Shown one piece after another: positions 35,526 to 59,629 of a stretch of DNA of 64,000 bases; position 1 is the stretch's first letter; every line of letters starts with the position of its first letter. The position numbers and the translations under genes were made by a program. The DNA lies in the NCBI RefSeq assembly GCF_988242995.1, contig NZ_OZ547043.1, one strand, 5' to 3'. The notes beneath the pieces are model-generated. The model did not search any database. It was given only the letters and a program-made list of their open reading frames with translations, and was not told the origin of the DNA.

Positions 35526-35624
35526 TGTTTTTTAACCTCAACTCAGATTAAAATTCGTTTTGTTCAGTGAATGATCTTGCCGGATACACACTGTTCATAG
35601 CCTGCGCCATACGCAGGCTATTTC

Positions 35625-36337
35625 TTGTGCACAGAAAACCCCCAGCTAGGCTGGGGGTTCCGGAAAGCTTTCAGCTTTGAGCCAGTTATTAAAACCCCTT
35701 TTGATTTGTTAAAACACTTTGCGGTCTGGCAACTGCAAGTGTCAAACAAGAAATCAAAAGGGGGTCCCAATGGGGAACGAAAAGAGCTTAGCGCACACCC
35801 GATGGAACTGTAAATATCACATAGTTTTTGCGCCAAAATACCGAAGACAGGTGTTCTACAGAGAGAAGCGTAGAGCAATAGGCAGTATTTTGAGAAAGCT
35901 GTGTGAGTGGAAAAGCGTACGGATTCTGGAAGCTGAATGCTGTGCAGATTATATCCATATGCTTGTGGAGATCCCGCCCAAAATGAGCGTATCCGGCTTT
36001 ATGGGATATCTGAAAGGGAAAAGCAGTCTGATGCTTTACGAGCAGTTTGGTGATTTGAAATTCAAATACAGGAACAGGGAGTTCTGGTGCAGAGGGTACT
36101 ACGTCGATACAGTGGGTAAGAACACGGCGAAGATACAGGATTACATAAAGCACCAGCTTGAAGAGGATAAAATGGGAGAGCAGTTATCGATTCCCTATCC
36201 GGGCAGCCCGTTTACGGGCCGTAAGTAACGAAGTTGGATGCAAATGTCAGATCGTGTGCGCCTGTTAGGGCGCGGCTGGTAAGAGAGCCTTATAGGCGCA
36301 TTTGAAAAACCTCCGGCTATGCCGGAGGATATTTATT
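35625..36337 (+). mobile_element. IS200-type insertion sequence, copy A
   Basis: About 711 bp near-identical to copy B; left-end hairpin CCCCCAGCTAGGCTGGGGG, right-end hairpin CCTCCGGCTATGCCGGAGG; contains tnpA. Confidence 0.9.
35770..36228 (+). CDS. tnpA: IS200/IS605 family Y1 (HUH) transposase TnpA
   Basis: 152 aa MGNEKSLAHTRWNCKYHIVFAPKYRRQVFY with HxH motif CADYIHMLVEIPP. Confidence 0.92.
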   Translation: MGNEKSLAHTRWNCKYHIVFAPKYRRQVFYREKRRAIGSILRKLCEWKSVRILEAECCADYIHMLVEIPPKMSVSGFMGYLKGKSSLMLYEQFGDLKFKYRNREFWCRGYYVDTVGKNTAKIQDYIKHQLEEDKMGEQLSIPYPGSPFTGRK

Positions 36338-36613
36338 TCAGATTTCACCTTTTAATTTCATTGCAATTAGAGTTGCCAGAAATTCGGCTTTTTTTTCTGC
36401 GGGCAGATTCTTTCCGATATGCACCAGGCACATTTTTTTGACACCTTCATCAAGTGTTTTTACGTTGCCTGATGGACCATCGATATCAACCACAGTGAAT
36501 GGGGTTTCTTTATTTTCTGTTTTAATTACGTAGCCAATGCGCTTTCCTTCCAGATTCACCTCGTGAACAATGTCATCGGTAGTTACAACAGTGGCTTCAT
36601 AATTGGTAATCAT
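36338..36613 (-). CDS. racC: Rac prophage protein RacC
   Basis: 91 aa from MITNYEATVVTTDDIVHEVNLEGKRIGYVI; stop codon abuts IS200 copy A. Confidence 0.85.
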   Translation of the reverse strand: MITNYEATVVTTDDIVHEVNLEGKRIGYVIKTENKETPFTVVDIDGPSGNVKTLDEGVKKMCLVHIGKNLPAEKKAEFLATLIAMKLKGEI

Positions 36614-36687
36614 GTTTTTCTCCTTAATTAAGGTTGAGCGAATACCTGCCATTTCTGGCATAAATTTAGTTTCGAATAGTCAATTAA

Positions 36688-36858
36688 TTAAAGTTCATGT
36701 GCCATCTGGTCTTTTTCGGCACAAGCTTCACTGCAATATTTTCTCGGTTCGTCTTTTGATAAAATCCCGTGCATGAAGTGAAGCATTCTTTCAATAGCTT
36801 TGCTTTCTTCAACGTCTTTTTTGCAAAGGTGGTAAGCACATTTTATTTTCTTAGTCAT
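36688..36858 (-). CDS. ydaE: Small Cys-rich metal-binding protein YdaE
   Basis: 56 aa ORF read by hand on minus strand ([18 protein letters not shown]...QMAHEL); not in ORF track. Confidence 0.7.
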   Translation of the reverse strand: MTKKIKCAYHLCKKDVEESKAIERMLHFMHGILSKDEPRKYCSEACAEKDQMAHEL

Positions 36859-37079
36859 CACCATGACTCCGCCTTTACAGGTAAACCATCACGACCGAGG
36901 AAGACTTTAATCATGCGGTCAGTAATGCATGTTTTTGTGGTCAGGTTACGAATATATAGTTTTCGCTTTTTAATATTGTTTGCCGAGGCAATATATGTCC
37001 GGCCTTCATGAAGAACATAATCGCCAGGAGTCACACACTGACGTGGTATTTCATCAGTTCCGAAGTGATGTGCAATCAT
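36858..37079 (-). CDS. kilR: FtsZ inhibitor KilR
   Basis: 73 aa from [26 protein letters not shown]. Confidence 0.88.
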
Positions 37080-37520
37080 AATTATCTCCATTTTTACAAA
37101 TGAACTTTGTTGATGCGGTGCCTGGTGCCTCCAGGTGACTGCAACCAGTTAACAATTACAGTCGGCTTTCCCACCCAAACCAATAAGGACTAACATGACT
37201 TTTAACTGTGCCACGTGCGCTTAGCCGCATTCACCGCATCACAAAATTCACTTTAAAAAGGGCGGACATCAGCCGAACTTCAAGAAAAAAACTGATGCCG
37301 CCAGGACTACACACAGCAATGTCGTTATTTACAACCGGAGGCGCACTCCCACCATTTAAATTTAACAGACAAGACCGACTCTTTATGGATATCGGAAATG
37401 CGCCTTCGTGTTGTGCCCGGTTTTATTTCACCACCTCCGGGCTTCGGTGGTCTCGGCTATACCCCTACAGCGAGAGCTTGTGTTAACATTTCAATACCCT
37501 TACAGTTGAGAGTTATTGAT

Positions 37521-38009
37521 ATGTTGGATGTATTTACTCCATTGTTGAAACTTTTTGCTAACGAGCCACTCGAAAGACTTATGTATACGATTATCATTTT
37601 TGGTCTCACTCTCTGGCTGATACCGAAAGAGTTTACTGCCGCATTCAATGCTTATACTGAAATACCTTGGCTCTTTCAGATTATCGTTTTTGCCTTTTCT
37701 TTCGTGGTCGCCATTTCCTTCTCAAGATTGCGAGCACATATTCAAAAGCATTATTCATTACTACCAGAGCAACGAGTATTGCTTCGTTTATCTGAGAAAG
37801 AAATCGCTGTATTTAAAGATTTCCTTAAAACAGGAAATCTTATTATCACTTCTCCTTGCCGTAACCCGGTTATGAAAAAATTAGAACGGAAGGGCATCAT
37901 TCAACATCAGAGTGATAGCGCAAACTGTTCTTATTATCTCGTCACCGAAAAATACTCCCATTTTATGAAGTTATTCTGGAACAGCAGGAGTAGACGTTTT
38001 AATCGTTAG
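37521..38009 (+). CDS. sieB: Superinfection exclusion protein SieB
   Basis: 162 aa from MLDVFTPLLKLFANEPLERLMYTIIIFGLT; membrane segments. Confidence 0.88.
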   Translation: MLDVFTPLLKLFANEPLERLMYTIIIFGLTLWLIPKEFTAAFNAYTEIPWLFQIIVFAFSFVVAISFSRLRAHIQKHYSLLPEQRVLLRLSEKEIAVFKDFLKTGNLIITSPCRNPVMKKLERKGIIQHQSDSANCSYYLVTEKYSHFMKLFWNSRSRRFNR

Positions 38010-38161
38010 CTTACTGTGTGCTTCTCCAACCATCGGCGCGCACCAGTTTCGGTTTTAAATGTTTTGCTTTTGGTATACGTCATGGCAGTGAACGTTCCAT
38101 CCTGGTTGGGGAACACGCCGCACACCAGGGATTCGTTGTTGCCGAGGTCGATTTTTTGCAT
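38006..38161 (-). CDS. ydaF: Rac prophage small protein YdaF
   Basis: 51 aa hand-translated MQKIDLGNNESLVCGVFPNQDGTFTAMTYTKSKTFKTETGARRWLEKHTVS. Confidence 0.75.
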   Translation of the reverse strand: MQKIDLGNNESLVCGVFPNQDGTFTAMTYTKSKTFKTETGARRWLEKHTVS

Positions 38162-38171
38162 TTTGCGAATC

Positions 38172-38306
38172 TCACATCTTGTTGCTACGTATAGCGACTT
38201 CTGCCTGCCAGAGATCCCAGTCGTTGCTGCGTAAAGCCTGCACAGCCTGGTTGTAAGTGATACCGCAACAATCCATCAAATACTGAACTACTTCGTAATG
38301 CACCAT
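38172..38306 (-). CDS. ydaG: Rac prophage small protein YdaG
   Basis: 44 aa hand-translated MVHYEVVQYLMDCCGITYNQAVQALRSNDWDLWQAEVAIRSNKM. Confidence 0.7.
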   Translation of the reverse strand: MVHYEVVQYLMDCCGITYNQAVQALRSNDWDLWQAEVAIRSNKM

Positions 38307-38614
38307 CTTATCTCTCCCCTTAACGCCGGGTGGCGGAACTAACTGCTGCACTGCAAAATTTGAATCCCGCCGTCATGTTCATACGCCTCGGGCTGGCTAC
38401 TTAACCCCTTACCACTGCCTGGTAACTCGAAGTATTGCCCGGCGTTCTGTGGGGCGGGGTGGGTGGTATGCTGGAACTATAGGTAATGCCTAATTGATTG
38501 TCAATAGGCTATGCCTAATGTTTTGAGCGTAACCTAATAGGTGATGGCGACAGCAGAAAGTGATGGGGGGGTTAAATAACGGAATCCAGGAGTTTTCCGT
38601 CAGACCATATAAGT

Positions 38615-39091
38615 TTAAGTTCCAGTTTTTGTGATGTTCTGGCTTTTCCGTTCAGATTCTAGAGCTTTCAGATACTTACCCACTTTCATTTCCATCGCTG
38701 CTATATAGGCGCGAACATCGTGGTCAACCCAATCTGGTTCTGTAGCATTTCCAGATAACAGGAAAGCTACAATCGCTCTTATTTCATCAGAGGCTGCTTG
38801 ATAAAGGTTGTTTATATCTAAAAGTTCACTTTTTGTATCTGAATTGGTGGGGGTTGGTATGGGGTATTCGTTAAGCCCCCAATGCTCTGGACCAACAACA
38901 TCAGAAAAGAAACGCCATAATTCTGGAAGTTTATCTTTACTTATAGAGCCTTTCTTAATCCAGTCATAAATTGATGGTGGTTGGACTTTGAAGTGGCGTG
39001 CGACCTCCGCCTTTGATTTGACGGATCCCGATGCGATTTTTTTGTTAATGGCCTGCTCTATCGCTCGGCCTAAGTCTTTACCACTAAGCAT
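38615..39091 (-). CDS. racR: Prophage repressor RacR (HTH)
   Basis: 158 aa; divergent from ydaS, typical immunity-region layout. Confidence 0.88.
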   Translation of the reverse strand: MLSGKDLGRAIEQAINKKIASGSVKSKAEVARHFKVQPPSIYDWIKKGSISKDKLPELWRFFSDVVGPEHWGLNEYPIPTPTNSDTKSELLDINNLYQAASDEIRAIVAFLLSGNATEPDWVDHDVRAYIAAMEMKVGKYLKALESERKSQNITKTGT

Positions 39092-39214
39092 TGCTTAATA
39101 TTCTCCTATGCGCATTACATTAGGCAATCCCTACCCTTACCGCATTAGGCACAGCCTATTGACAATTGCGTTAGGCGTCGCCTAATATTTCTGTGTGTTT
39201 TTGGAGTTCATTCG

Positions 39215-39511
39215 ATGAAAAAAGAGAACTATTCATTCAAGCAAGCTTGTGCTGTTGTCGGTGGGCAATCAGCAATGGCTAGGCTTTTAGGTGTATCACC
39301 TCCAAGCGTAAATCAATGGATCAAAGGGGTACGTCAATTGCCTGCCGAGAGATGTCCAGCAATTGAACGTGCAACAAGAGGTGAGGTTCTGTGCGAAGAA
39401 CTTCGTCCTGATATTGACTGGTCATATTTACGACGTTCGGCATGTTGTTCGCAGAATATGTCAGTGAAGCAACTAAATGACAGTAACAAATCCTCATTTG
39501 ATCATACCTGA
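39215..39511 (+). CDS. ydaS: Cro-like HTH protein YdaS
   Basis: 98 aa; HTH segment QACAVVGGQSAMARLLGVSPPSVNQW. Confidence 0.88.
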   Translation: MKKENYSFKQACAVVGGQSAMARLLGVSPPSVNQWIKGVRQLPAERCPAIERATRGEVLCEELRPDIDWSYLRRSACCSQNMSVKQLNDSNKSSFDHT

Positions 39512-39533
39512 AACATCAAGAGGCAAATGATTC

Positions 39534-39956
39534 ATGAAAATCAAGCATGAGCACATCGAATCAGTGTTGTTTGCCCTAGCAGCCGAAAAAGGGCAGGCAT
39601 GGGTAGCCAATGCAATTACTGAAGAATATCTGCGCCAGGGGGGCGGCGAATTGCCCCTGGTTCCAGGCAAGGACTGGAACAATCAGCAGAATATCTATCA
39701 CCGTTGGTTGAAAGGTGAAACGAAAACGCAAAGAGAAAAAATTCAGAAGCTGATCCCAGCAATTCTGGCAATCCTTCCGCGCGAGCTGCGTCACCGACTC
39801 TGCATCTTCGATACCCTGGAACGCCGTGCATTACTGGCGGCGCAGGAAGCGTTAAGTACGGCAATTGATGCGCATGATGATGCAGTCCAAGCCGTTTACC
39901 GGAAAGCGCATTTCAGCGGCGGCGGTTCTTCCGACGATTCTGTCATTGTTCATTAA
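39534..39956 (+). CDS. ydaT: Rac prophage protein YdaT (cII-like position)
   Basis: 140 aa directly downstream of ydaS. Confidence 0.85.
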   Translation: MKIKHEHIESVLFALAAEKGQAWVANAITEEYLRQGGGELPLVPGKDWNNQQNIYHRWLKGETKTQREKIQKLIPAILAILPRELRHRLCIFDTLERRALLAAQEALSTAIDAHDDAVQAVYRKAHFSGGGSSDDSVIVH

Positions 39957-39968
39957 GCAAAAGTTTCC

Positions 39969-40826
39969 ATGCTGTTTGTGCTTATTCTAAGCCACCGGGC
40001 AGCATCATACGGGGCAATTATGGCCGCATTACCATACATGCAACTGTACATAGCTGATTACCTGGCTGACACCATGCATTTGTCAGCAGAGGAGCATGGT
40101 GCGTATTTGTTGCTGATGTTCAATTACTGGCAAACAGGAAAGCCAATACCTAAAAACAGGCTGGCAAAAATTGCCCGTCTGACTAACGAGCGATGGGCTG
40201 ATGTTGAACCATCCTTGCAGGAGTTTTTTTGCGATAACGGCGAGGAATGGGTGCATCTTCGGATTGAGGAAGATCTGGCATCAGTCAGGGAAAAATTAAC
40301 CAAAAAATCAGCCGCAGGAAAAGCATCTGTTCAGGCCAGAAGAAGCAGAAAGGAAGCAGATGTTCAAACAAAACAAGAGAGAAATTTAACAGGTGTTCAA
40401 ACAGATGTTGAAGTGGTGTTTGAACATGATGTCAACACAAAGGCAACTAATAAAGATACAGATAAAGATCTAAAAACAGATCCCCCCCTAAATCCCCCCC
40501 GGGGGAATCGAGGTGTCAAAAAGTTTGACCCTCTGGATATTGCTTTGCCGAACTGGATTTCTGTCTCGCTTTGGCGTGAGTGGGTTGAATTTCGCCAGGC
40601 ATTGCGAAAACCGATTCGAACGGAGCAGGGCGCTAACGGGGCGATACGGGAGCTGGAAAAATTCCGCCAGCAGGGTTTTTCACCTGAGCAGGTGATTCGA
40701 CACAGCATCGCCAATGAATACCAGGGCTTGTTCGCGCCGAAAGGTGTTCGACCTGAGACGTTACTCCGACAGGTTAACACCGTCTCGTTACCGGATAGTG
40801 CGATCCCGCCAGGCTTCAGGGGGTAA
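39969..40826 (+). CDS. ydaU: Phage replication initiation protein (O-like) YdaU
   Basis: 285 aa; precedes DnaC-like ydaV. Confidence 0.82.
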   Translation: MLFVLILSHRAASYGAIMAALPYMQLYIADYLADTMHLSAEEHGAYLLLMFNYWQTGKPIPKNRLAKIARLTNERWADVEPSLQEFFCDNGEEWVHLRIEEDLASVREKLTKKSAAGKASVQARRSRKEADVQTKQERNLTGVQTDVEVVFEHDVNTKATNKDTDKDLKTDPPLNPPRGNRGVKKFDPLDIALPNWISVSLWREWVEFRQALRKPIRTEQGANGAIRELEKFRQQGFSPEQVIRHSIANEYQGLFAPKGVRPETLLRQVNTVSLPDSAIPPGFRG

Positions 40827-40832
40827 CTGACC

Positions 40833-41579
40833 ATGAAAAATATTGCGACAGGCGATGTTCTTGAACGTATCCGCAGACTGGCCCCGTCACATGTAACCGC
40901 GCCATTCAAGACGGTAGCGGAGTGGCGCGAGTGGCAACTTTCCGAAGGCCAGAAACGTTGTGAGGAGATCAACCGTCAGAATCGTCAGTTGCGGGTGGAA
41001 AAAATTCTTAATCGCTCTGGCATCCAGCCATTGCACCGCAAATGCTCGTTTTCGAATTACCAGGTGCAGAACGAAGGGCAGCGATACGCGTTGAGTCAGG
41101 CGAAATCCATCGCTGATGAACTGATGACCGGGTGTACAAATTTTGCGTTCAGCGGAAAACCTGGTACCGGAAAAAACCATCTGGCGGCGGCTATCGGGAA
41201 TCGCCTGCTGAAAGATGGCCAGACAGTGATTGTGGTTACCGTGGCTGATGTCATGAGTGCCCTACACGCCAGCTATGACGACGGGCAATCAGGCGAAAAA
41301 TTTTTGCGGGAACTGTGCCAAGTGGATCTGCTGGTTCTTGATGAAATTGGCATTCAGCGCGAGACAAAAAACGAGCAGGTGGTGCTGCACCAGATTGTTG
41401 ATCGCCGGACAGCGTCGATGCGCAGCGTGGGGATGCTGACAAACCTGAATTATGAGGCCATGAAAACATTGCTCGGCGAGAGGATTATGGATCGCATGAC
41501 CATGAACGGCGGGCGATGGGTGAATTTTAACTGGGAGAGCTGGCGTCCGAATGTCGTCCAGCCAGGAATTGCGAAGTAA
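40833..41579 (+). CDS. ydaV: DnaC-like helicase loader (IstB-like ATPase) YdaV
   Basis: 248 aa; Walker [16 protein letters not shown], Walker B LLVLDEIG. Confidence 0.88.
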
Positions 41580-41601
41580 TTTTTACCGGGAGAAAAATTT
41601 A

Positions 41602-42363
41602 ATGGAGACTGTTTTTGACGCACTGAAAGCAATGGGAAAAGCCACATCCATAGAACTTGCTGCGCGACTTGATATCAGCCGTGAAGAAGTGCTGAACGAA
41701 CTATGGGAACTGAAAAAGGCTGGTTTCGTTGATAAAAGCGCGTACACCTGGCGTGTGGCTGATAACAACGTTCAGCAGGAACAGCCAGCGCCGGCAGAAC
41801 TGCCGGAAGAAACTACCACGGCAACAGTCGCGAAAATTTCAGAGAGCGATTTAACTGCGACGATTGAACAACGTGGTCCACTAACTGCGGATGAACTGGC
41901 TACGTTGTTCGGTACCACATCCCGCAAAGTGGCTTCAACGCTGGCAATGGCAATCAGCAAAGCTCGTCTGATTCGCGTTAATCAGAACGGTAAATTTCGT
42001 TACTGCATGCCGGGCGGTAATTTACCAGCAGAGCCGAAAGCTGCATCGGTAGCGGAAACAGATGGTAAAGCCTTTCCTCAGCTAGCCGGTGTTGCGTTAC
42101 CAGTACAGGAAGCTGCAACACAGGAAGATATTAAAACAGAAACTGTGGCGGACATTGTGCAGTCGTTGCCATCGTTTACTGAAACGCAAGCGGATAACCT
42201 GATTTTACCATCGCTGCATATGGCAAACCGTGAACTGCGTCGGGCGAAAAATCATGTCCAGAAGTGGGAGCGAGTCTGCGCCGCGCTGCGGGAGCTGAAC
42301 AAGCACCGGGATATTGTTCGACAGATTTTCGATTCCTCCAGTCGTATTGTGTCGGAAAAGTGA
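41602..42363 (+). CDS. ydaW: Rac prophage protein YdaW (apparently full-length here)
   Basis: about 253 aa from [30 protein letters not shown] (winged-helix-like N-terminus). Confidence 0.7.
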
Positions 42364-42378
42364 TTGCCGGAGGCACCT

Positions 42379-42810
42379 ATGGCAAAAGTATTTACACCAG
42401 AAGAGCGGGAAAAAATTAAAGGGCAGGTTGTTGAACTTGTACGTCTGAGCGGTCGCGAGACGTTACGGGCTCTGGAGGCTAAAACCGGTGCATCAAGGTA
42501 TTACATAAGCACTCTCGCCAGAGAACTGGTCGCCAGTGGTGATGTTTACAATTCAGGCTACGGATTATTCCCGTCTGAGCAGGCTCGTAAGGACTGGCAA
42601 AACGCCCGCAAAAAACTATCCAGGGCAAAGGTGAAAAAAACGGTTGTGGTTGATCCTGACCTTATCTGGTCATTACCAGACGGAGAAATACGCCGCTACG
42701 ACAGGCGCCTGAATATAATCTGTCGCGAGTGCCGGAAAAGCGAAGTTATGCAGCGTGTACTGGCATTTTACCAGAGTAATTTCAGGAGGTTGTCTGGTGA
42801 GCACGATTAA
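42379..42810 (+). CDS. Hypothetical protein with CxxC pair, function unknown
   Basis: 143 aa from MAKVFTPEEREKIKGQVVELV; contains IICRECRK. Confidence 0.55.
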   Translation: MAKVFTPEEREKIKGQVVELVRLSGRETLRALEAKTGASRYYISTLARELVASGDVYNSGYGLFPSEQARKDWQNARKKLSRAKVKKTVVVDPDLIWSLPDGEIRRYDRRLNIICRECRKSEVMQRVLAFYQSNFRRLSGEHD

Positions 42811-42843
42811 CTACTAGGGGGGATAACAATAAAATAAAGCCTC

Positions 42844-43884
42844 CTAGGAGGCTTTGATTATATTAAGCAAATGTTTTCCAATCGTTTCAGACATCTTCGG
42901 AGGGACCGCATTTCCTATTTGACGAGCCCGAGATTGCAAAGAACCAATAAATTTATAATCCAAAGGAAATGTTTGTAGACACGCTGCTTCACGAACCGAT
43001 ATTGCTCGATTTTGTGTTGGATGTCCAAAACGTCCATTTGAATAGCTAATACAACGAGTTGTTAGTCCGCTGGCTGGTTTGTCCCAACTCAAACGTCCAT
43101 ATACGTCTGTATGCCCTTTATGGTTACGATGGCATTCTAAAATCAATTCATCTGGCCAAAATTCTCGACTTCCACCTTCAGGAGTGCATTTTATTCTACG
43201 TAAATTAAGCTCTGATAAGCGTGCAGCTTCATGATCAGGAATACTATTATGCTTTTCTCCTGCTTCTATCTTCGGTAAATTAGCGATCCAGTCCTTTACT
43301 GTTGAATAGGGAGTATTTCCAACCCCATGTGTAGGAGAAGGCAATGCGACATAAAAATCCTTGGATGCAATGAGCACTAATCTTTCTCGCGTCTGTGGTA
43401 CACCGTACCACGCAGCTGGCATTACTTTATAATCTACACTATATCCCTTTGATGAAAGCATTTCTAAAAACATCATGAATGTTCCTTCATTTTTGTTAAA
43501 CTTTTGCATTCCTGGCACGTTTTCAACAAAAATAAAATCAGGCATATAATGCTCTACAAAGCGACTGAATTCCTTTAATAGATCTAATCGTGGATCATCA
43601 TTTTTCTTATTTGAGTTTTGCTTAGAGTACGGTTGACAAGGCGCACATCCTGAAAAAAGAATGTAATCATTACGATGTTTTTTTACTAACTTGTTTATGG
43701 CATTGTTGTCGATTAACCTAATGTCCGAGTTAATAAAAGCAGCCTGCGGGAAATTTGCACGAAATGAACTGGCTGCATCAACGTCGAAATCGAGGCCAAA
43801 AACAATATCCATTCCAGCTTGATGGAAACCTTGGCTGGTTCCACCACAACCGGAAAAGAAGTCAAACACTTTGATTTTTTTCAT
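42844..43884 (-). CDS. DNA (cytosine-5)-methyltransferase
   Basis: 346 aa from MKKIKVFDFFSGCGG; motif I FSGCGG, motif IV GCAPCQPYS, motif VI ENVPGM, motif VIII QTRERLVLIA, motif X GNAVPP; RBS AGAGGGA. Confidence 0.9.
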   Translation of the reverse strand: MKKIKVFDFFSGCGGTSQGFHQAGMDIVFGLDFDVDAASSFRANFPQAAFINSDIRLIDNNAINKLVKKHRNDYILFSGCAPCQPYSKQNSNKKNDDPRLDLLKEFSRFVEHYMPDFIFVENVPGMQKFNKNEGTFMMFLEMLSSKGYSVDYKVMPAAWYGVPQTRERLVLIASKDFYVALPSPTHGVGNTPYSTVKDWIANLPKIEAGEKHNSIPDHEAARLSELNLRRIKCTPEGGSREFWPDELILECHRNHKGHTDVYGRLSWDKPASGLTTRCISYSNGRFGHPTQNRAISVREAACLQTFPLDYKFIGSLQSRARQIGNAVPPKMSETIGKHLLNIIKAS

Positions 43885-43907
43885 TTTTCCCTCTGCATCC
43901 AGAATCA

Positions 43908-45737
43908 CTACCTAATGATACCACGGTCAAGAGCCTGAGTAATTATTTTTCTTATTTTTATAAATTCAGGCAATTCATTTTTAAGTCTTGCGGTCATCAT
44001 TTGTTGGAGGCAAAAAATTTCCTCTGCATTTACTTCTTCTTTATCATACAGGTGTTGCGCTAATAATCTTATTTGATTCTTATACAGTTCTGGATCATTA
44101 GAACTCCAGGTCTGTGAATCAATTATTTCTTTTTCACTTGGCGTAATTGCCTTTTCAATGAGTAATTGTTCGGGAGTATCAAATGGTAAATACTTCACTT
44201 TATTGAATGCATACTCAAGCACTTGCCTTTTGAGTCTATTAGATTCTTGTTCATTTTTTTTGCCATTACTACCACTGGCATTGATAATTAACTCGCAACC
44301 ATAATATTTGCACATTGTATTAACTAAATCAGCATCAGCAATTTCACTAATTCTTACTGGTTTTATTTTTTTGTTTTTATCACCATCAAGTAAAAACAAA
44401 ATATCATTGCGTTCTACCACAGCGTAACTGGGAAGATGCTTGCTTAAAATGGTCTCCGAACCACCTGGTATATAACTTACACTAAATGATAAGCTTAATC
44501 TTTCATCATTTTTAATCGCTTTATCTATAATTGCTTTAGCTAATTTATCTTCTACAATTATTGTTTTCTTGTTAATATCATGCCCTAGCTCTATAAAAGC
44601 TTCATCCGGTGCTATATTTTGAACTATTTTAGCTGTTTCACTCTCTTCATCAAAAACAAATAATTTAATGGCATCTTTGGGAAGAGTGTTCACAATAACA
44701 GGAGAATGGGTTGATATTACCACTTGATGTTTTTTCTGCTCAACAATAGAGTACAGAACATCCATCATCCTTTTTTGTGCACCAGGGTGAAGTGAAACTT
44801 CTGGTTCGTCAAGAAGAATTAATGAATTAGGTTTGGCCGAATAAATATTGAGTATTAGTGAAACTATTGCAAATTCACCACTTCCAGCAAACGCTTCTGT
44901 ATAGTTCAACTTATCAGTTGAAAGTAAAGCGGTTCCTCCTCTGGTTCCAAATAACCGATGCTCAAGAAATTTAATGACTTTATATTTTTTCCCTAATATA
45001 AATGAGACGTGCTCAACTAGTTCTGGCGCCAAGGTTATATTTTTAACAATGGTTTCCGCCCCCCAGAGTCTTAAATTACTTAGCTTTTCATCAAAAGCTT
45101 TCTTTATATATTTAGATTTGCTTCTGATATAGTCTTGCTTTGTAATTAATACACCACTCTTCTTCTTTCTTAATTTAAAATCAGAGTGATACATACATCT
45201 ATCAAATGCACTTATTTCCGATCTGAAATCTAGGAAAACCAATCCCTTCTTGATTTTTTTCCATCTGGTTGCATTACTATTAGCACCCAGATCATCCGAA
45301 ATACTCTCCATGTTATCACCAACAGATGGTCGACTTGTTTCCCAATAATCGATTGTTTTCTTGGTAGCATTGATACGTGCTTGGAGTATTTCAACTAAAC
45401 GGCCATCAGCATTTTTATATCCATATATATATCTAGGTTTAAGAGAACTGCCATCAGCAAGTTTTAGGTCAGGAAACTCATCTGTTTCAGTTGTGAACCA
45501 ATAACGAGTTATATTTTTACCATGTGGGCAACCAAATAGCGCTTTGATAACAGAACTTTTATTAGTTCCATTTTTTCCTACTAAAGCCGTTATAGGGAAC
45601 TGAAAATCGATCCTTGCATTCTGCTCTATATTTTTAAAGTATGGAAAACGGATATGTTGTATGAATGGTTCAAATTCACCGTTTTTTAACGCGCACTGGA
45701 GTGTTCGAATTTTGCTCTTGTATGCGGAAGTGCTCAT
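43908..45737 (-). CDS. ABC-type ATPase fused to C-terminal Toprim-like domain (OLD-family-like nuclease candidate)
   Basis: 609 aa; Walker A LVGKNGTNKSS, Walker B/D-loop SLILLDEPEVSLHP, H-loop VISTHSPVI; C-terminal IIVEDKLAKA glutamate and FLLDGDKN DxD suggest Toprim; 23 bp upstream of MTase on same strand. Confidence 0.7.
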   Translation of the reverse strand: MSTSAYKSKIRTLQCALKNGEFEPFIQHIRFPYFKNIEQNARIDFQFPITALVGKNGTNKSSVIKALFGCPHGKNITRYWFTTETDEFPDLKLADGSSLKPRYIYGYKNADGRLVEILQARINATKKTIDYWETSRPSVGDNMESISDDLGANSNATRWKKIKKGLVFLDFRSEISAFDRCMYHSDFKLRKKKSGVLITKQDYIRSKSKYIKKAFDEKLSNLRLWGAETIVKNITLAPELVEHVSFILGKKYKVIKFLEHRLFGTRGGTALLSTDKLNYTEAFAGSGEFAIVSLILNIYSAKPNSLILLDEPEVSLHPGAQKRMMDVLYSIVEQKKHQVVISTHSPVIVNTLPKDAIKLFVFDEESETAKIVQNIAPDEAFIELGHDINKKTIIVEDKLAKAIIDKAIKNDERLSLSFSVSYIPGGSETILSKHLPSYAVVERNDILFLLDGDKNKKIKPVRISEIADADLVNTMCKYYGCELIINASGSNGKKNEQESNRLKRQVLEYAFNKVKYLPFDTPEQLLIEKAITPSEKEIIDSQTWSSNDPELYKNQIRLLAQHLYDKEEVNAEEIFCLQQMMTARLKNELPEFIKIRKIITQALDRGIIR

Positions 45738-45885
45738 TGTTTACTAAAGTCCATAATAGGCTATTAACAGGTTGAGGATGACATGATAACGATTTTTAAT
45801 GCAGATAAAAGAGGTTTGTTGGTTAGCACACAACAGAAAAAGTGACCTTACCGCTTGAACGAAAGGTAAGGGTAAGTAGGCTGTG

Positions 45886-46038
45886 ATGCAGCAAAAGACG
45901 ATGTTAATCGCCCTGATTGTCATCTGTATTACCGTCGTTGTGATGGCACTGGTAACAAGGAAAGACTTCTGCGAGGTACAAATCCGAACCGGTCAGACGG
46001 AGGTCGCTGTCTTCACAGCTTACGAACCTGAGGAGTGA
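45886..46038 (+). CDS. Hok/Gef-family type I toxin
   Basis: 50 aa MQQKTMLIALIVICITVVVMALVTRKDFCEVQIRTGQTEVAVFTAYEPEE; single TM then conserved C-terminal tail; 3' hairpin GCGAGGGAGAAATCCCTCGC at 46047-46066; below ORF-track size cutoff. Confidence 0.8.
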   Translation: MQQKTMLIALIVICITVVVMALVTRKDFCEVQIRTGQTEVAVFTAYEPEE

Positions 46039-46503
46039 GAGACCAGGCGAGGGAGAAATCCCTCGCCACCTCTGATGAGTCAGGCATCCTCAACGCACCC
46101 GCACTTAACCAACTTTGGCGGGTATATTTTATCTGTGAATATTTTTATAAAAATAATGCCCACGCACAGCATAAAACAAAAAGTATTACAGATAAAAAAG
46201 GAACGTAATGTGCAGATTTGTTGTTTTCCATATTTACTCACCTTAATATGATTAACCCTAATAGGGTTGTTATTTCAGCGGTTTTCAAATGAGATATTAT
46301 GGTGATCTGGCAGATTTGCATAACATTAAAATTTAATTTGTTTAACCGCTTTTAATAATAAGCGTTGTTTGTATCCCAGCAATCTGTTGTTTGGTTTTTA
46401 TTCCATTAAGGTGGGGCTTTACACTGGAGCCAGTTTATTTATACTTCATACGTCAGCCTGAACAACTGGCATCTGCTGCGCTGCGCCATCGAGAGATTAA
46501 GAA

Positions 46504-47103
46504 ATGGCGCATATACAACTGGTCAAACAAACCTCTTCCGGATTACTTCTCCCGGCGACGCCGGAGAGTTGTGATTTTCTGCATCAAATCAAAATAGGCG
46601 AGTGGATACACGCAGACTTTAAGCGTGTGCGTAACTACGCATTCCACAAGCGTTTTTTCAAACTCCTGCAACTGGGATTCGATTACTGGACTCCGGTCGG
46701 TGGGGCGATCACGCCTCGCGAACGAGAACAGCTGTCTGGTTTCGTTGATTACCTGTGCGAATCAGTTGGTCGGGAACACACGCCAGCCCTGAGTGATGCC
46801 GCAGAGCAATATCTGAATACAGTTGCGACACGCAGAACCCGGGATACGGCATTGCTAAAGTCGTTTGAGGCTTTTCGCGAGTGGGTAACCATTCAGGCTG
46901 GATTTTACACCGAACATTTTTATCCGGACGGTAGCCGCGGGCGTCGGGCAAAATCTATCGCTTTTGCGAATATGGACGAAACCGAGTTTCAGCAGGTTTA
47001 TAAATCTGTTCTGAATGTGCTGTGGAACTGGATTCTGTTCCGTAAATTTTCCTCTCCGGAACAAGTCGAAAATGTGGCCGCGCAGCTGCTGGAGTTTGCG
47101 TAA
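46504..47103 (+). CDS. Phage nin-region protein, DUF1367 (YbcN-like)
   Basis: 199 aa; position between replication genes and Q. Confidence 0.6.
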   Translation: MAHIQLVKQTSSGLLLPATPESCDFLHQIKIGEWIHADFKRVRNYAFHKRFFKLLQLGFDYWTPVGGAITPREREQLSGFVDYLCESVGREHTPALSDAAEQYLNTVATRRTRDTALLKSFEAFREWVTIQAGFYTEHFYPDGSRGRRAKSIAFANMDETEFQQVYKSVLNVLWNWILFRKFSSPEQVENVAAQLLEFA

Positions 47104-47393
47104 TGGTGGATTTACGTAAAGCGGCGCGGGGGCAGATGTGCACCGTCAGAATTCCTGGCTACTGCAATCACAATCCCGAAACATCTGTGCTGGCGCATTA
47201 CAGGCTGGCGGGGACGTGCGGAACAGCGACAAAACCACACGATATGCAGGCAGCGATTGCCTGTAGCTCATGCCACGATTTAATCGACGGGCGGGTAAAA
47301 ACCAGCGATTACACCAAAGAAGAATTACGCCTGATGCATGCAGAAGGTGTTTTTCGCACACAAGAAATCTGGAGAAAGGAAGGTTATTTATGA
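47103..47393 (+). CDS. Phage nin-region Cys-rich protein, DUF1364 (YbcO-like)
   Basis: 96 aa with CxxC...CxxC spacing (CTVRIPGYC, CSSCHD). Confidence 0.6.
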   Translation: MVDLRKAARGQMCTVRIPGYCNHNPETSVLAHYRLAGTCGTATKPHDMQAAIACSSCHDLIDGRVKTSDYTKEELRLMHAEGVFRTQEIWRKEGYL

Positions 47394-47932
47394 TTTACCC
47401 AACAAATACAGGCAAAAGCGGGGAACACCTTCGTCTCACCACGCTGGAAAGTGTCTGGATTCAGGGAAAACTGCGCATGTGGGGGCGCTGGTCGTATATT
47501 GGCGGCGGTAAGACGGGAAATATGTTTAACCAGTTGCTGGCATCCAAAAAATTGACGAAAACAGCCGTCAATGAAGCCCTGCGCAGGATGAAAAAAGCGG
47601 GAATAGAGAAACCTGAGCTGGAAGCGTTTTTGCGAGAGATGATCAATGGCAAGCAAAAGACCTGGCTGGCGCATTGTACTGATGCAGAGGCGTTATGTAT
47701 TGATAGAGTCATAAGTGAGGTGCTGGCAGAGCATCCTGGATTGATTAGTGTCCTCCGGCAACGGTATGAAGGACGGGGGATGACTAAGCGCAAAATGGCT
47801 GAATTGCTAAATGATGCACATCCTGAGTGGTGTTTTAGCACATGCGAAAAGCGAATTGCTAATTGGTTGGCTGTTGCTGAGTATGCCCTATATATTCCCA
47901 TGCGAGAATTATTTGCTCAAAAAATAGCTTGA
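47390..47932 (+). CDS. Late-gene antiterminator Q-like protein
   Basis: 180 aa from MIYPTNTGKSGEHLRLTTLE; immediately upstream of lysis region. Confidence 0.6.
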   Translation: MIYPTNTGKSGEHLRLTTLESVWIQGKLRMWGRWSYIGGGKTGNMFNQLLASKKLTKTAVNEALRRMKKAGIEKPELEAFLREMINGKQKTWLAHCTDAEALCIDRVISEVLAEHPGLISVLRQRYEGRGMTKRKMAELLNDAHPEWCFSTCEKRIANWLAVAEYALYIPMRELFAQKIA

Positions 47933-48038
47933 TTTTTTACGCATAAACTGCTTCAATTCCGGTATGCTTCGCAAAGCTGTATCGCGAGGCGAACCAAGCG
48001 CATGAACTTTACCAGAACCCGCCATTGAGCGGGTTTTG

Positions 48039-48751
48039 TTGTGCACAGAAAACCCCCAGCTAGGCTGGGGGTTCCGGAAAGCTTTCAGCTTTGAGCCAGT
48101 TATTAAAACCCCTTTTGATTTGTTAAAACACTTTGCGGTCTGGCAACTGCAAGTGTCAAACAAGAAATCAAAAGGGGGTCCCAATGGGGAACGAAAAGAG
48201 CTTAGCGCACACCCGATGGAACTGTAAATATCACATAGTTTTTGCGCCAAAATACCGAAGACAGGTGTTCTACAGAGAGAAGCGTAGAGCAATAGGCAGT
48301 ATTTTGAGAAAGCTGTGTGAGTGGAAAAGCGTACGGATTCTGGAAGCTGAATGCTGTGCAGATTATATCCATATGCTTGTGGAGATCCCGCCCAAAATGA
48401 GCGTATCCGGCTTTATGGGATATCTGAAAGGGAAAAGCAGTCTGATGCTTTACGAGCAGTTTGGTGATTTGAAATTCAAATACAGGAACAGGGAGTTCTG
48501 GTGCAGAGGGTACTACGTCGATACAGTGGGTAAGAACACGGCGAAGATACAGGATTACATAAAGCACCAGCTTGAAGAGGATAAAATGGGAGAGCAGTTA
48601 TCGATTCCCTATCCGGGCAGCCCGTTTACGGGCCGTAAGTAACGAAGTTGGATGCAAATGTCAGATCGTGTGCGCCTGTTAGGGCGCGGCTGGTAAGAGA
48701 GCCTTATAGGCGCATTTGAAAAACCTCCGGCTATGCCGGAGGATATTTATT
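48039..48751 (+). mobile_element. IS200-type insertion sequence, copy B
   Basis: Near-identical to copy A, same orientation, same terminal hairpins. Confidence 0.9.
48184..48642 (+). CDS. tnpA: IS200/IS605 family Y1 transposase TnpA
   Basis: Identical 152 aa product to copy A. Confidence 0.92.
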   Translation: MGNEKSLAHTRWNCKYHIVFAPKYRRQVFYREKRRAIGSILRKLCEWKSVRILEAECCADYIHMLVEIPPKMSVSGFMGYLKGKSSLMLYEQFGDLKFKYRNREFWCRGYYVDTVGKNTAKIQDYIKHQLEEDKMGEQLSIPYPGSPFTGRK

Positions 48752-48864
48752 GTTTCTGGTACTGGCGAACCTGATGTTTCATTTCTGGAGCGCGATTCCT
48801 GGCGGAATACCTAGAATCGAGACATTCTGGTAAAATTGTTTTCAGTACAGGATGTGGAGGTGAG

Positions 48865-49434
48865 ATGAGAGAACTACCTAAAGATTATTTTTTAGGAGTA
48901 GATGATGAGCTCGTCGATTATCTTGAAAAACAAGGGGAAGAGACGATACGAGAGATTCATCTTTCTAACAAAACCAATGTTGAGAATGGATACAAACTTC
49001 TGAACATTCAGATTGTTGGAATTGGTTCATCTTTTTTATTGCTGACACAGAAAACTAATTTCGATTTTCTCACCGCCGGAATTACCACATTTACATTACT
49101 ATGGACATGGTGCGCCATTTACTTGGTATGTACTGGTTTATCTGTGAAGGTTAGGGGCCTGATCAATGCCCCTCCTGATCATCTATATCATGAAAAATAT
49201 AAGGATATGGAGCCCTCGAGCTTTAAAATATTCGCTGATGCAGGATATTTAGGACCTGATAAGTTATTGCCGCTTATACGAAGGTATCGCCTTGTTGACT
49301 TGAGTGATACAGCAAGAGAGTTACTGTTGGAAAATGAGAAAATCCGCACGAGTCTCGATAAAGCAAGGATGTATACCATCCTTGCTCCGGTAGCGGCGAT
49401 GTTTATCTCGGCTGTTTTTTTATATGTTCAATGA
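48865..49434 (+). CDS. Hypothetical membrane protein (cargo between Q and holin)
   Basis: 189 aa with hydrophobic segments (GIGSSFLLLTQ, TFTLLWTWCAIYLVCTGL, ILAPVAAMFISAVFLYV); AT-rich. Confidence 0.5.
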   Translation: MRELPKDYFLGVDDELVDYLEKQGEETIREIHLSNKTNVENGYKLLNIQIVGIGSSFLLLTQKTNFDFLTAGITTFTLLWTWCAIYLVCTGLSVKVRGLINAPPDHLYHEKYKDMEPSSFKIFADAGYLGPDKLLPLIRRYRLVDLSDTARELLLENEKIRTSLDKARMYTILAPVAAMFISAVFLYVQ

Positions 49435-49659
49435 CTGAGTCGGCAGAATCTCCAACAAAAACACGACGTGTAGCAAAGTCTGTAGTACTTTGTGTTGGAG
49501 TTGGTTTTGGTGCCACGGGGTGCTGAGGTTTATTTTCACCTTGTGGTTTGTTTTTTTCAGACATAAAAATCCTCTTTGTTTGAATTGTTACTTTTGGCGA
49601 TTTAACGATATCAAACACGAGTATATACCGCCAGAAGCTTAATCTGGCACTCCATCTGA

Positions 49660-49685
49660 CCCCGGCATGTCCCGGGGCTTTTTCG
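49660..49685 (+). terminator. Hairpin plus T-run upstream of holin (possible tR'-like terminator)
   Basis: CCCCGG-CATGTC-CCGGGG followed by CTTTTT. Confidence 0.4.
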
Positions 49686-49781
49686 TTGTTAGGCTCCGGA
49701 AACATCCTCGACTTCTTGTTAGCAAGCCTGAGAGCCTGAATCTTACACTTAGCACCATCCGAACTCTCGGAGGTGAGGCTT

Positions 49782-50123
49782 ATGAAAATGCACAATGCCC
49801 CTCATTCCTGGCCTGACTTACTGGAACTCTTACAAAGTTGGTGGCGTGGAGATACGCCGCTGGGTGCAGTGGTTATGTCAATTATTATGGCTGGTTTGCG
49901 CATTGCCTATTTTGGCGGTGGCGGCGGCTGGAAACGAAAAACGCTTGAGATTCTGCTTTGTGGTGCTCTGACGCTGACCTTTGCATCCGCGCTTGAGTAT
50001 GTCGGATGGCCTAAATCACTTTCTGTTGCCATTGGTGGTGGGGTGGGGCTGATTGGTGTTGATGCTATTCGTAGTGCGGCAATGAGGGTCATCGGTAACA
50101 AGTTCGGTGCCCATAAGGAGTAA
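49782..50123 (+). CDS. Class I holin with dual-start motif
   Basis: 113 aa from MKMHNAPHS (Met-Lys-Met like lambda S107/S105); hydrophobic segments; upstream of endolysin. Confidence 0.75.
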   Translation: MKMHNAPHSWPDLLELLQSWWRGDTPLGAVVMSIIMAGLRIAYFGGGGGWKRKTLEILLCGALTLTFASALEYVGWPKSLSVAIGGGVGLIGVDAIRSAAMRVIGNKFGAHKE

Positions 50124-50126
50124 TTA

Positions 50127-50603
50127 ATGCAGACACTTAATTCCCAGCGTAAAGCTTTCCTTGATATGGTGGCATGGTCAGAAGGAACAGATAACGGACG
50201 GCAGAAAACCAGAAATCACGGTTATGATATTATTGTCGGTGGCGAACTGTTCACTGATTACTCCGATCACCCCCGCAAACTTGTCACGCTAAATCCGAAA
50301 CTCAAATCAACAGCCGCTGGACGTTACCAGCTTCTTTCACGCTGGTGGGATGCCTACCGCAAGCAACTTGGCCTGAAAGATTTTTCTCCAGAAAGTCAGG
50401 ATGCTGTAGCGCTGCAGCAGATTAAAGAGCGTGGCGCTTTGCCGATGATTGATCGCGGTGATATCCGTCAGGCTATCGACCGTTGCAGCAATATATGGGC
50501 TTCACTGCCGGGCGCTGGTTATGGTCAGTTCGAGCATAAGGCTGACAGTCTGATTGCAAAATTCAAAGAAGCTGGCGGAACGGTCAGAGAGATTGAGGTA
50601 TGA
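50127..50603 (+). CDS. Lambda R-like endolysin (lytic transglycosylase)
   Basis: 158 aa; near-identical over most of its length to lambda R as recalled ([28 protein letters not shown]). Confidence 0.92.
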
Positions 50604-51064
50604 GCAGAGTAACCGCGATTATCTCCGCTCTGGTTATCTGCATCGTCGTCTGCCTGTCATGGGGTGTTAATCATTACCGTGATAACGCCATCGCCTACAA
50701 AGAACAGCGCGACAAAAATGCCAGAGAACTGAAGCTGGCGAACGCGGCAATTACTGAGATGCAGATGCGTCAGCGTGATGTTGCTGCGCTCGATGCAAAA
50801 TACACGAAGGAGTTAGCTGATGCGAAAGCTGAAAATGATGCTCTGCGTGATGATGTTGCCGCTGGTCGTCGTCGGTTGCACATCAAAGCAGTCTGTCAGT
50901 CAGTGCGTGAAGCCACCACCGCCTCCGGCGTGGATAATGCAGCCTCCCCCCGACTGGCAGACACCGCTGAACGGGATTATTTCACCCTCCGGGAACGACT
51001 GGTAATGATGCAGGCCCAACTTGAAGGTGCTCAGCAATACATAACCGAGCAGTGTTTAAAGTAA
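50600..51064 (+). CDS. Spanin inner-membrane subunit Rz
   Basis: 154 aa [30 protein letters not shown]; overlaps endolysin stop. Confidence 0.9.
50820..51005 (+). CDS. Spanin outer-membrane lipoprotein Rz1 (embedded in Rz, +1 frame)
   Basis: 61 aa; lipobox VVGC and proline-rich [15 protein letters not shown]. Confidence 0.88.
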
Positions 51065-52796: not shown

Positions 52797-53588
52797 ATGA
52801 GCGAGAAATTAAAGATAGTCTATCGCCCATTACAAGAATTGTCACCGTATGCGCACAACGCCAGGACGCACAGTACTGAGCAGGTGGCACAACTGGTAGA
52901 AAGTATTAAGCAATTCGGCTGGACTAATCCGGTGCTGATTGACGAAAAGGGCGAAATTATTGCGGGTCACGGTCGTGTTATGGCGGCTGAAATGCTCAAA
53001 ATGGATTCTGTTCCGGTCATTGTTCTGTCTGGCCTGACGGATGAGCAGAAAAAGGCGTACCGCCTGGCAGATAATCGCCTGCCGATGAATGCTGGCTGGG
53101 ATGAAGATCTGTTGCGGATGGAGCTGTCGGACCTAATCAATGCTGATTTTGATGTCTCCCTGACAGGCTTCATCCCGACAGAAATTGATGAACTGTTGAC
53201 GGATGTTTTGCCCGGTACAGGAAATGAGGAGGAGCCGTATACGACGAAAATTGATACGCCTGTTTATGAGCCGTCGGGCGGTAAACCGGATATCAGTGAA
53301 CTGTACGACGATACGAAAACTCAGGAGCTGATCAGCCGGATACGTTCGGCGTCCCTTGAGCCTGATATTGAGAAATTCCTCCTGTGTGCGGCAGAACGTC
53401 ACACGGTGTTTAATTTCAGCAGAATTGCGGACTATTACGCTCACGCCCCCTCTGAAATTCAGTGTTTTTTCGAGGAGTCGGCGCTGGTGATCATTGATTA
53501 TCAGCAGGCTATTGAAAATGGATTTGTCCGGATGACGCAGCGCATGGTGGAGATCATGCATGGTGGTGAGGAGGAGGAATATGCGTGA
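52797..53588 (+). CDS. ParB-like nuclease domain protein (full-length counterpart of K-12 ynaK)
   Basis: 263 aa; ParB/Srx-type motif IIAGHGRVMAA. Confidence 0.65.
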   Translation: MSEKLKIVYRPLQELSPYAHNARTHSTEQVAQLVESIKQFGWTNPVLIDEKGEIIAGHGRVMAAEMLKMDSVPVIVLSGLTDEQKKAYRLADNRLPMNAGWDEDLLRMELSDLINADFDVSLTGFIPTEIDELLTDVLPGTGNEEEPYTTKIDTPVYEPSGGKPDISELYDDTKTQELISRIRSASLEPDIEKFLLCAAERHTVFNFSRIADYYAHAPSEIQCFFEESALVIIDYQQAIENGFVRMTQRMVEIMHGGEEEEYA

Positions 53589-54513
53589 TGATTTTTGCGC
53601 CTTTATTCTGACTCACGGGCGACCGGACAAAGTTCTGACTTACCGGACGTTGCGTCGTGCTGGCTATACCGGGAAAATTTTTATCGTTGTTGATGATGAA
53701 GATAAGACACGGCATCAGTACATGGCTGAATTTGGTGAACAGGTGCTGGTGTTTTCCAAAGCCGATATCGCCAGTCGTTTTGACGAAGCCGATAATTTCT
53801 GTGACCGCCGCTCAATTTTTTACGCCCGTAATGCCTGTTTCGACCTGGCAAAACTGGTCGGGTGTAAATACTTCATTCAGCTCGATGATGATTATCACGA
53901 GTTCCAGTTTCGGGTGGATCGCAACTATGACCAGGCCTATTTTCCGATAAGGAAACTGGATGCGATCCTTTCTGAAATGCTGGCGTACTACGAATCAATA
54001 CCTGCTCTTTCCATCGCTATGTCGCAGGGCGGGGATTTTCTTGGTGACAATGGCGGCCATGCTTCGTGGGTGAAACGCAAGGCAATGAACAGCTTTATCT
54101 GTTCGGTTGATCGACCGTTCTCATTCATGGGGCGCATTAACGAGGATGTGAATACGTACACGAATCTCGGTCGCTGTGGTGAATTGTTTATGACGATCGG
54201 TGCTGTCCAGTTAGGGCAGAAACAGACGCAGAAAAACAGCGGCGGAATGACCGAGCTGTATCTGGATTCCGGAACCTACGTTAAAAGTTTTTACTCCGTC
54301 ATGTATGCGCCGTCGTGCGTAAAAATTTCACTGATGGGTGCCAGCCATAAACGCATTCACCATCAGGTCACCTGGAACAACGCTGCAGTAAAAATCCTTC
54401 ACGAAAAATACAGGAAGAAGACACCCTGCATATCAATGGGGGTGACAAATGATTCCGTATTCGAAAGTCGAGTCTCTGGCAGCGTGCCGGATGACTGCAC
54501 AACAAATCGCTGA
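53581..54513 (+). CDS. Hypothetical protein with acidic DDDY motif, function unknown
   Basis: about 310 aa from MRDDFCAFILTHGRPDKV; IFIVVDDEDK and FIQLDDDYHEF segments. Confidence 0.5.
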   Translation: MRDDFCAFILTHGRPDKVLTYRTLRRAGYTGKIFIVVDDEDKTRHQYMAEFGEQVLVFSKADIASRFDEADNFCDRRSIFYARNACFDLAKLVGCKYFIQLDDDYHEFQFRVDRNYDQAYFPIRKLDAILSEMLAYYESIPALSIAMSQGGDFLGDNGGHASWVKRKAMNSFICSVDRPFSFMGRINEDVNTYTNLGRCGELFMTIGAVQLGQKQTQKNSGGMTELYLDSGTYVKSFYSVMYAPSCVKISLMGASHKRIHHQVTWNNAAVKILHEKYRKKTPCISMGVTNDSVFESRVSGSVPDDCTTNR

Positions 54514-54700: not shown

Positions 54701-54703
54701 CTG

Positions 54704-57080: not shown

Positions 57081-57082
57081 TT

Positions 57083-59585: not shown

Positions 59586-59604
59586 ATAAATCATTTATTA
59601 CAAC

Positions 59605-59629
59605 AGGCTACCTTCGGGTGGCCTTTTTT
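59605..59629 (+). terminator. Rho-independent terminator after head morphogenesis gene
   Basis: AGGCTACC-TTCG-GGTGGCCT followed by TTTTTT. Confidence 0.6.

Follow-up and report, generated by a model that had tools for sequence, protein, structure and literature searches.

Two identical IS200C copies in direct orientation in a Rac-like prophage: separate recent insertions beside terminator-like hairpins

When two identical insertion sequences (ISs) in the same orientation bracket a stretch of prophage, do they form the ends of a mobile unit, or did they arrive separately in DNA that was already in place? We asked this of a 64,000-nucleotide (nt) stretch of DNA, hereafter the window (assembly GCF_988242995.1, contig NZ_OZ547043.1), in which two IS200 copies, A and B, enclose 11.7 kb of a Rac-like prophage. 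An earlier reading made from the letters alone (the sequence-only reading) had described the pair as essentially identical and in the same orientation, had likened the arrangement to a composite element, and had judged recombination between the copies, as in RecA-mediated deletion, likelier than transposition. We find that each copy entered a pre-existing prophage separately and recently, as a simple insertion, and we hold with high confidence the reading as a whole, namely that two IS200C elements inserted separately and recently 3′ of terminator-like hairpins in a Rac-like prophage. The features of the two copies are listed here; NZ_CP110858 (L001) is a closely related genome that lacks both.

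35625-36335, plus strand: IS200C copy A, the 711-nt inserted unit, from identity with copy B, the empty site in NZ_CP110858 and 99.7% identity to annotated IS200C.
48039-48749, plus strand: IS200C copy B, the 711-nt inserted unit, from identity with copy A (continuing to 48751) and the empty site in NZ_CP110858.
35770-36228, plus strand: tnpA of copy A, encoding a 152-residue Y1/HUH transposase with the substitution H61Y, from NF033573 (transpos_IS200) and solved homologues.
48184-48642, plus strand: tnpA of copy B, 100% identical to that of copy A, at an offset of 12,414 nt.
35637-35760, plus strand: left-end RNA/structure module of copy A, matching Rfam RF01405 (STnc490), with art200/STnc490 on the opposite strand.
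48051-48174, plus strand: left-end RNA/structure module of copy B, the same as in copy A.
36310-36328, plus strand: right-end subterminal hairpin of copy A, CCTCCGGC-TAT-GCCGGAGG, terminator-like on both strands.
48724-48742, plus strand: right-end subterminal hairpin of copy B, the same as in copy A.

Positions 35625-36337 and 48039-48751 align over 713 nt with zero mismatches, as direct repeats at an offset of 12,414 nt. The sequence-only reading had allowed that exact alignment might reveal substantial differences; there are none, and its description of the pair holds to the base. Such a match is far more than chance would produce. Among repeats of 100 nt or longer, the window has only this pair, and the flanks of the two copies are mutually unrelated on both sides. 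Inverted repeats of 100 nt or more did not turn up in the window; no search was made for shorter terminal ones. Comparison with the empty sites of NZ_CP110858 sets the inserted unit at 711 nt per copy: a TT dinucleotide is present once in each empty site, and 2 of the 713 identical bases are thus ambiguous at the IS ends.

Both repeats are the known element IS200C, of the IS200 group of the IS200/IS605 family, which bears out their earlier assignment to IS200. The transposase TnpA scores 142.2 bits against NF033573, the NCBIfam equivalog for IS200 transposases (cutoff 55), Pfam Y1_Tnp is recorded for a protein identical to the TnpA of both copies, and TnpA aligns with the solved Y1 transposases 2EC2, 2F4F, 2A6M and 2VHG (Sulfolobus, IS608 and ISDra2; PDB) with E-values down to 3e-22. 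A 124-nt stretch just inside the left end matches the full STnc490 model (144.6 bits, gathering score 56, E=3e-31), with a terminator hairpin at 35637-35659 and a stem-loop in the tnpA 5′ untranslated region (UTR); the described organization of this module consists of the terminator hairpin, the tnpA 5′ UTR stem-loop and an antisense RNA, art200, encoded opposite (PMC4513863). Each copy is 99.7% identical over 711/711 nt to named IS200C elements (CFT073 and others). Two nucleotides differ from the CFT073 element, C326T (giving TnpA H61Y) and the synonymous G373C; no fully identical 711-nt copy was found in complete genomes, where 99.7% was the best match.

The CFT073 element, from a genome with about 20 IS200 matches, shares the 711-nt length, the single tnpA, the left-end art200/STnc490 terminator module and the right-end hairpin. 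IS608 and ISDra2 encode transposases of the same fold family (E 1e-15 to 3e-18), in which the HUH and catalytic tyrosine positions align with those of TnpA. They differ from IS200C in recognizing a tetra- or pentanucleotide target and in carrying tnpB, whereas IS200C lacks tnpB and here occupies sites made of a hairpin and a T-run. A strand-specific, replication-coupled mechanism for IS200C is assumed here by homology with IS608 and ISDra2.

Evidence for separate insertion comes from relatives in which both sites are empty. A 15-kb query spanning the whole region was run against complete E. coli genomes, and 17 of these carry the same Rac-like prophage at 99.8-99.9% identity with neither IS200 copy. 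In 15 of the 17 the matching span is 13,705 nt, which equals the query minus 1,422 nt (2 x 711); in the remaining two, an IS3 insertion is the sole difference. The individual bases of NZ_CP110858 show an intact, unoccupied site at both junctions, and each empty site differs from its occupied counterpart by exactly 711 nt, with no conventional target-site duplication and only the TT ambiguity. Site A is also unoccupied in K-12. Relative to NZ_CP110858 there are 5 single-nucleotide polymorphisms (SNPs) in the 11.7 kb inside the bracket, and 5 and 7 in the two 4-kb flanks. Since the interior SNP density is not above that of the flanks and the segment is IS-free in relatives, the bracketed DNA was not imported as an IS-flanked unit. 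The proposed resemblance to a composite element therefore does not survive the comparison: the same segment, about 99.9% identical and with no rise in SNP density, sits IS-free at the same locus in 17 genomes.

Neither occupied site turned up in the collections covered. Three 1,311-nt queries, representing site A with its insertion, site B with its insertion and the junction predicted for an A/B deletion, were run against 5,426 complete E. coli genomes; at a coverage of at least 80%, occupied A or B was found in 0 of the 5,426. Exact scans found neither the A-left nor the B-right junction in JGI metagenome contigs, and no A-left junction in GTDB representative genomes. Exact-protein look-ups, which sampled 24 blocks of tens of thousands, found no tnpA beside RacC or beside the 189-residue open reading frame (ORF) at site B (10 places each). 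The sequence-only reading had remarked that IS200 transposes rarely; this is true of IS200 in general (PMC4513863) but needs a qualification here, as this strain has acquired at least two insertions since its split from 99.9%-identical relatives. Overall, this is a known element showing known behavior in one strain, and thus ordinary insertion-sequence biology.

We next turn to what the two sites have in common. The targets, as they precede the left end of each copy, are as follows.

35597-35621, plus strand: target A, a 10-bp hairpin then TTCTT, in the racC-recE intergenic region (dG -16.7 kcal/mol, z -5.5; terminator-like by scan).
48013-48038, plus strand: target B, the hairpin AACCCGC-CATTGA-GCGGGTT then TTG(TT) (dG -15.4, z -3.4), read from the empty site of NZ_CP110858.

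The hairpin of target A reads ATAGCCTGCG-CCATA-CGCAGGCTAT, is followed by TTCTT, and is present in the NZ_CP110858 empty site and in K-12; the left end of copy A abuts its T-run. No plus-strand gene is annotated upstream of this hairpin in K-12 or NZ_CP110858. Target B lies about 80 nt downstream of a Q-like gene, and the left end of copy B likewise abuts the T-run. Target-site signatures, which the sequence-only reading had thought worth seeking at each end, thus take the same form at both sites: a hairpin and then a T-run, on the plus strand. Sites A and B were considered together with nine IS200C insertions from other genomes. In 11 of 11, a stable hairpin ends 0-5 nt before the left end, which lies in the T-run, and TT is found at both junctions; the hairpins at the nine other sites have dG values of -10.7 to -17.3 kcal/mol and z-scores of -2.3 to -6.5. 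IS200C generally, like the copies in the window, inserts after terminator-like hairpins, and terminator-like sequences immediately upstream have been reported as most over-represented for the IS200/IS605 family (bioRxiv 10.1101/2025.07.22.666184).

These targets also account for the shared orientation. In the proposed mechanism, the left end of IS200 would be joined to a strand-specific, single-stranded target in the T-run 3′ of a GC-rich hairpin. As the target is strand-specific, the orientation of the IS is set by the strand that bears the hairpin and T-run; with both targets on the plus strand, the same orientation is expected from two independent insertions and does not point to a composite design. 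The window is colinear with K-12 1,395,000-1,425,630 in the same orientation and its cumulative GC skew is positive, which together place the top strand of the IS (window plus) on the template of the lagging strand. The IS200/IS605 family shows a lagging-strand-template bias in both excision and insertion (PMC5371812, PMC5027513). The two insertions provide clean, dated cases of IS200C entry into the T-run of terminator-like hairpins.

The two copies also share a rare allele in tnpA, which changes the first histidine of the histidine-hydrophobic-histidine (HUH) motif.

35950-35952 (copy A) and 48364-48366 (copy B), plus strand: codon 61, TAT (Tyr) where other IS200C elements have CAT (His), converting DHIHM to DYIHM.

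In both copies the change arises from a C-to-T substitution at nt 326 of the IS (35950 and 48364 in the window). In each of the four structure alignments printed, residue 61 falls on the first histidine of "dhih", and the intact His-hydrophobic-His motif is replaced by Y-I-H in both TnpA copies; Y125 and Q129, at the aligned tyrosine and glutamine positions, are retained. The HUH histidines coordinate an essential metal ion (PMC5027513). Among the 148 family representatives that could be aligned, from the 150 best drawn from 1.84 billion proteins, the first-His column holds His in 144 and Tyr in 3. Contigs that encode the exact H61Y protein number 25, compared with at least 1,000 for the wild-type protein, and a 30-mer specific for H61Y was absent from GTDB representative genomes. 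Of 2,546 E. coli records with IS200, a single one has a best match that bears the T allele at nt 326; this record, plasmid NZ_AP026938, was considered as a member of the same lineage and rejected, being truncated and 97% identical, with indels and frameshifts.

An identical 711-nt H61Y variant is found at two further chromosomal locations, in three draft assemblies: after the rplT terminator and upstream of pheM (GCA_034225025.1; L027:3800-4600), and between pmrD and ymgL (GCA_032614775.1, L029:3800-4600; GCA_044698625.1, L032:1-700). With the two sites in the window, the lineage occupies at least four chromosomal sites without a further base change, and the identical variant at rplT-pheM and pmrD-ymgL means that it has moved repeatedly, at least three times. 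The H61Y substitution bears on the autonomy of the IS200C copies and not on their ancestry. From the altered motif, we judge that TnpA is probably defective and the H61Y copies probably non-autonomous; we favor a mechanism in which wild-type TnpA supplied in trans would move them. As for ancestry, either copy is probably the parent of the other, or the two share an immediate parent, because they are otherwise identical and carry a very rare allele 12 kb apart. In K-12 mutation-accumulation lines, new IS insertions were biased to nearby sites (PMC5009759). The more conservative reading is a non-autonomous IS200 that is efficiently mobilized in trans and made a short 12-kb hop inside the prophage. 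It is unlikely, in our estimate, that tyrosine at the first HUH metal-ligand position still supports single-strand transposition, and hence that HUH is less strict in Y1 transposases than has been assumed. The H61Y allele is the only mildly new item at this locus, and offers a natural test of either trans-mobilization or HUH variability in IS200.

What could the pair do once in place? Homologous recombination is well established to act on perfect direct repeats of this length. At the 711-nt repeat, RecA-dependent unequal exchange could remove the 12,414-nt unit or duplicate it in tandem, and we regard the view that either event could occur as sound. Across E. coli K-12 mutation-accumulation lines, IS-IS recombination occurred at about 4.5e-5 per genome per generation, with all IS pairs summed (PMC5009759). 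The window pair resembles the IS1 and IS5 pairs of those lines in being perfect direct repeats, here of about 0.7 kb and 12.4 kb apart on one chromosome arm. The IS1 and IS5 pairs gave deletions and duplications (PMC5009759), whereas the window shows the substrate alone. In this strain, then, the 12.4-kb unit would be losable or amplifiable in a single recombination step, and it holds a repressor together with its toxic targets, replication genes, the methyltransferase/ATPase cargo described below, and hok. The gene racR is essential only because RacR represses ydaS-ydaT (PMC5700377, PMC5700373). A 12.4-kb deletion should nevertheless be viable, because racR would be lost together with kilR and with the toxic ydaS and ydaT that it controls. 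The proposal of RecA-mediated deletion thus stands as far as the substrate is concerned, a perfect direct repeat of 713 nt; the event itself is unobserved in any collection searched, and duplication is equally expected.

The copies may also affect transcription across the prophage. Copy A lies between racC and recE, antiparallel to the leftward early operon. A bidirectional terminator lies in the left end of IS200, and the element was discovered through its polar effect as an insertion (PMC4513863); on the minus strand the right-end hairpin, too, resembles a terminator. Copy A would accordingly be polar, with less leftward read-through from racC into recE-recT and beyond, and we consider that it probably reduces racC-to-recE-recT read-through by way of the internal terminators of IS200. 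Copy B comes after the Q-like gene (DUF1133) and the hairpin downstream of it, with the lysis genes on its other side. A promoter-like site, TTGGCT-18-TATATT, is found at 47867-47896, within the last part of the Q-like gene; the site-B hairpin follows about 115 nt later. This layout (47867-48038), with copy B directly after it, recalls a lambdoid late promoter and terminator. The site-B hairpin may terminate the late operon, with the Q-like protein acting upon it.

These positions raise the question of whether the copies were kept for what they do. The terminators of retained copies might block leftward read-through into recET-xis-int and separate the Q-like gene from the lysis genes, and the placement of copy A between racC and recE, and of copy B after the Q-like gene and hairpin but before the lysis genes, fits such a role, as do the bidirectional, polar terminator of the IS200 left end (PMC4513863) and the right-end hairpin, terminator-like on both strands. 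Against this, target preference fully explains both positions, a Q-modified polymerase would read through terminators, and the insertions occur in 0 other genomes searched and so give no sign of selection. We therefore think it very unlikely that the copies are retained as insulators. The further suggestion that the prophage is thereby kept locked in and harmless seems just as improbable to us, given an already defective prophage in which trkG comes straight after the lysis genes, as it does in K-12. That the pair acts as a composite transposon, in which copy A's left end would work with copy B's right end to move a 13.1-kb block as a unit, we regard as extremely unlikely. Two identical, direct IS copies do flank cargo-bearing DNA, and in the IS200/IS605 family a left and a right end on the same strand would in principle suffice for TnpA. 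However, the segment is in place without IS in the 17 relatives, its divergence from NZ_CP110858 is no greater than that of the flanks, an IS-flanked block at this locus or elsewhere was found in 0 of the 5,426 complete E. coli genomes, and both tnpA genes carry H61Y. Moreover, the movement of IS200 is a single-strand "peel and paste" process that takes place at replication forks, and excision needs both ends to be single-stranded on the lagging-strand template, where single-stranded stretches or gaps measure about 1.5-2 kb and not 13 kb (PMC5027513). TnpA processing of the two outer ends over this full length is expected to be poor. An assembly artefact, in which one IS200 copy was placed twice or the repeat was mis-joined, has hardly any probability in our view. 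Perfectly identical repeats are where assemblers err, but here four unique junctions each restore, to the base, an empty site known in relatives, and both sites obey the hairpin-plus-T-run rule with correct polarity, as do nine independent sites, which a mis-join would not.

Our preferred reading of separate, recent IS200C insertions, with movement in trans, a short hop and later recombination as its less direct parts, also has evidence weighing against it. The copies at rplT-pheM and pmrD-ymgL, which record at least three moves, fit trans-mobilization but equally fit a still-active enzyme. With about 20 IS200 copies per genome, a pair within 12 kb would be unremarkable by chance, which weakens the case for a local hop. 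Finally, recombination between the copies is purely predicted. The predicted A/B deletion junction, in which the recE side, one IS200 and the side of the 189-residue ORF are joined, was found in 0 of the 5,426 complete E. coli genomes, and neither a recombinant, nor a single-copy intermediate, nor a duplication was found in the genome, metagenome and GTDB scans. Single-copy or deletion variants, which the sequence-only reading had hoped to see in related E. coli, thus turned up in none of the three collections. IS pairs as recombination substrates, IS200 dormancy and the association of IS200 with terminators are all already documented, and the locus adds little beyond this strain.

The setting of the two insertions is a Rac-like lambdoid cryptic prophage that occupies the same locus, next to ttcA, as Rac in K-12. 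Two of its segments concern the bracketed DNA.

36336-48038, no strand assigned: bracketed segment of 11,703 nt, from racC to the Q-like gene, from colinearity with NZ_CP110858 and K-12.
42844-45737, minus strand: cargo, a methyltransferase and an ATPase, from profile matches.

The genes in the bracket are racC, ydaE, kilR, sieB, ydaF, a ydaG-like gene, racR, ydaS, ydaT, ydaU and ydaV; then a DUF1627 gene (full-length ydaW), DUF977, a cytosine-5 methyltransferase, a 609-residue ATPase and hok; and, at the Q end, DUF1367, DUF1364/YbcO and the DUF1133 Q-like gene. Colinearity with the annotated NZ_CP110858 and K-12 confirms the list given earlier from the letters. Within the cargo, the cytosine-5 DNA methyltransferase (42844-43884) matches TIGR00675 dcm at 166 bits and PADLOC MTase_II at 322 bits. 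The ABC/AAA_21-type ATPase (43908-45737) is annotated as an ATP-dependent nuclease and matches Pfam AAA_21 and AAA_15; its best PADLOC matches are HEC-04 (117 bits) and ATPase-Toprim_I-B (90 bits). In similar prophages of other genomes, the place of the methyltransferase and ATPase is taken, according to annotation and at approximate positions, by DUF262 with an AAA ATPase, by SIR2 with adenosine deaminase, or by KilA-N. The variable cargo slot between DUF977 and hok suggests a defense-gene hotspot.

K-12 Rac occupies the same position in the same orientation, with colinear blocks at 1,397,239-1,423,201 and 1,423,200-1,425,630; identity is 98.8-99.0% from ttcA/intR through ydaW and 99.9% from Rz/trkG. 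K-12 lacks window positions 42052-50619 (8.6 kb, or 7.9 kb minus the IS), a stretch that reaches as far as Rz and includes site B; missing with it are ydaW's C-terminal part, DUF977, the methyltransferase and ATPase of the cargo, hok, the nin genes, the Q-like gene, the holin and the lysozyme. The K-12 Rac prophage is therefore a deletion derivative of the form found in the window. The K-12 IS5 beside ynaJ (1,396,044-1,397,238) is absent from the window (15378-15381), and the late region differs from K-12 Rac after ynaK, at 53050 (53050-64000). In some other genomes (L020:1-1500 and L023:1-1500), recT-recE-racC-ydaE-kilR-sieB-ydaF-ydaG leads straight into a different lysis cassette (holin_2_1, DUF1327 and lysozyme), without racR, ydaS, ydaT, the replication genes or IS200. 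There are thus viable Rac-like prophages that lack the region for immunity and replication.

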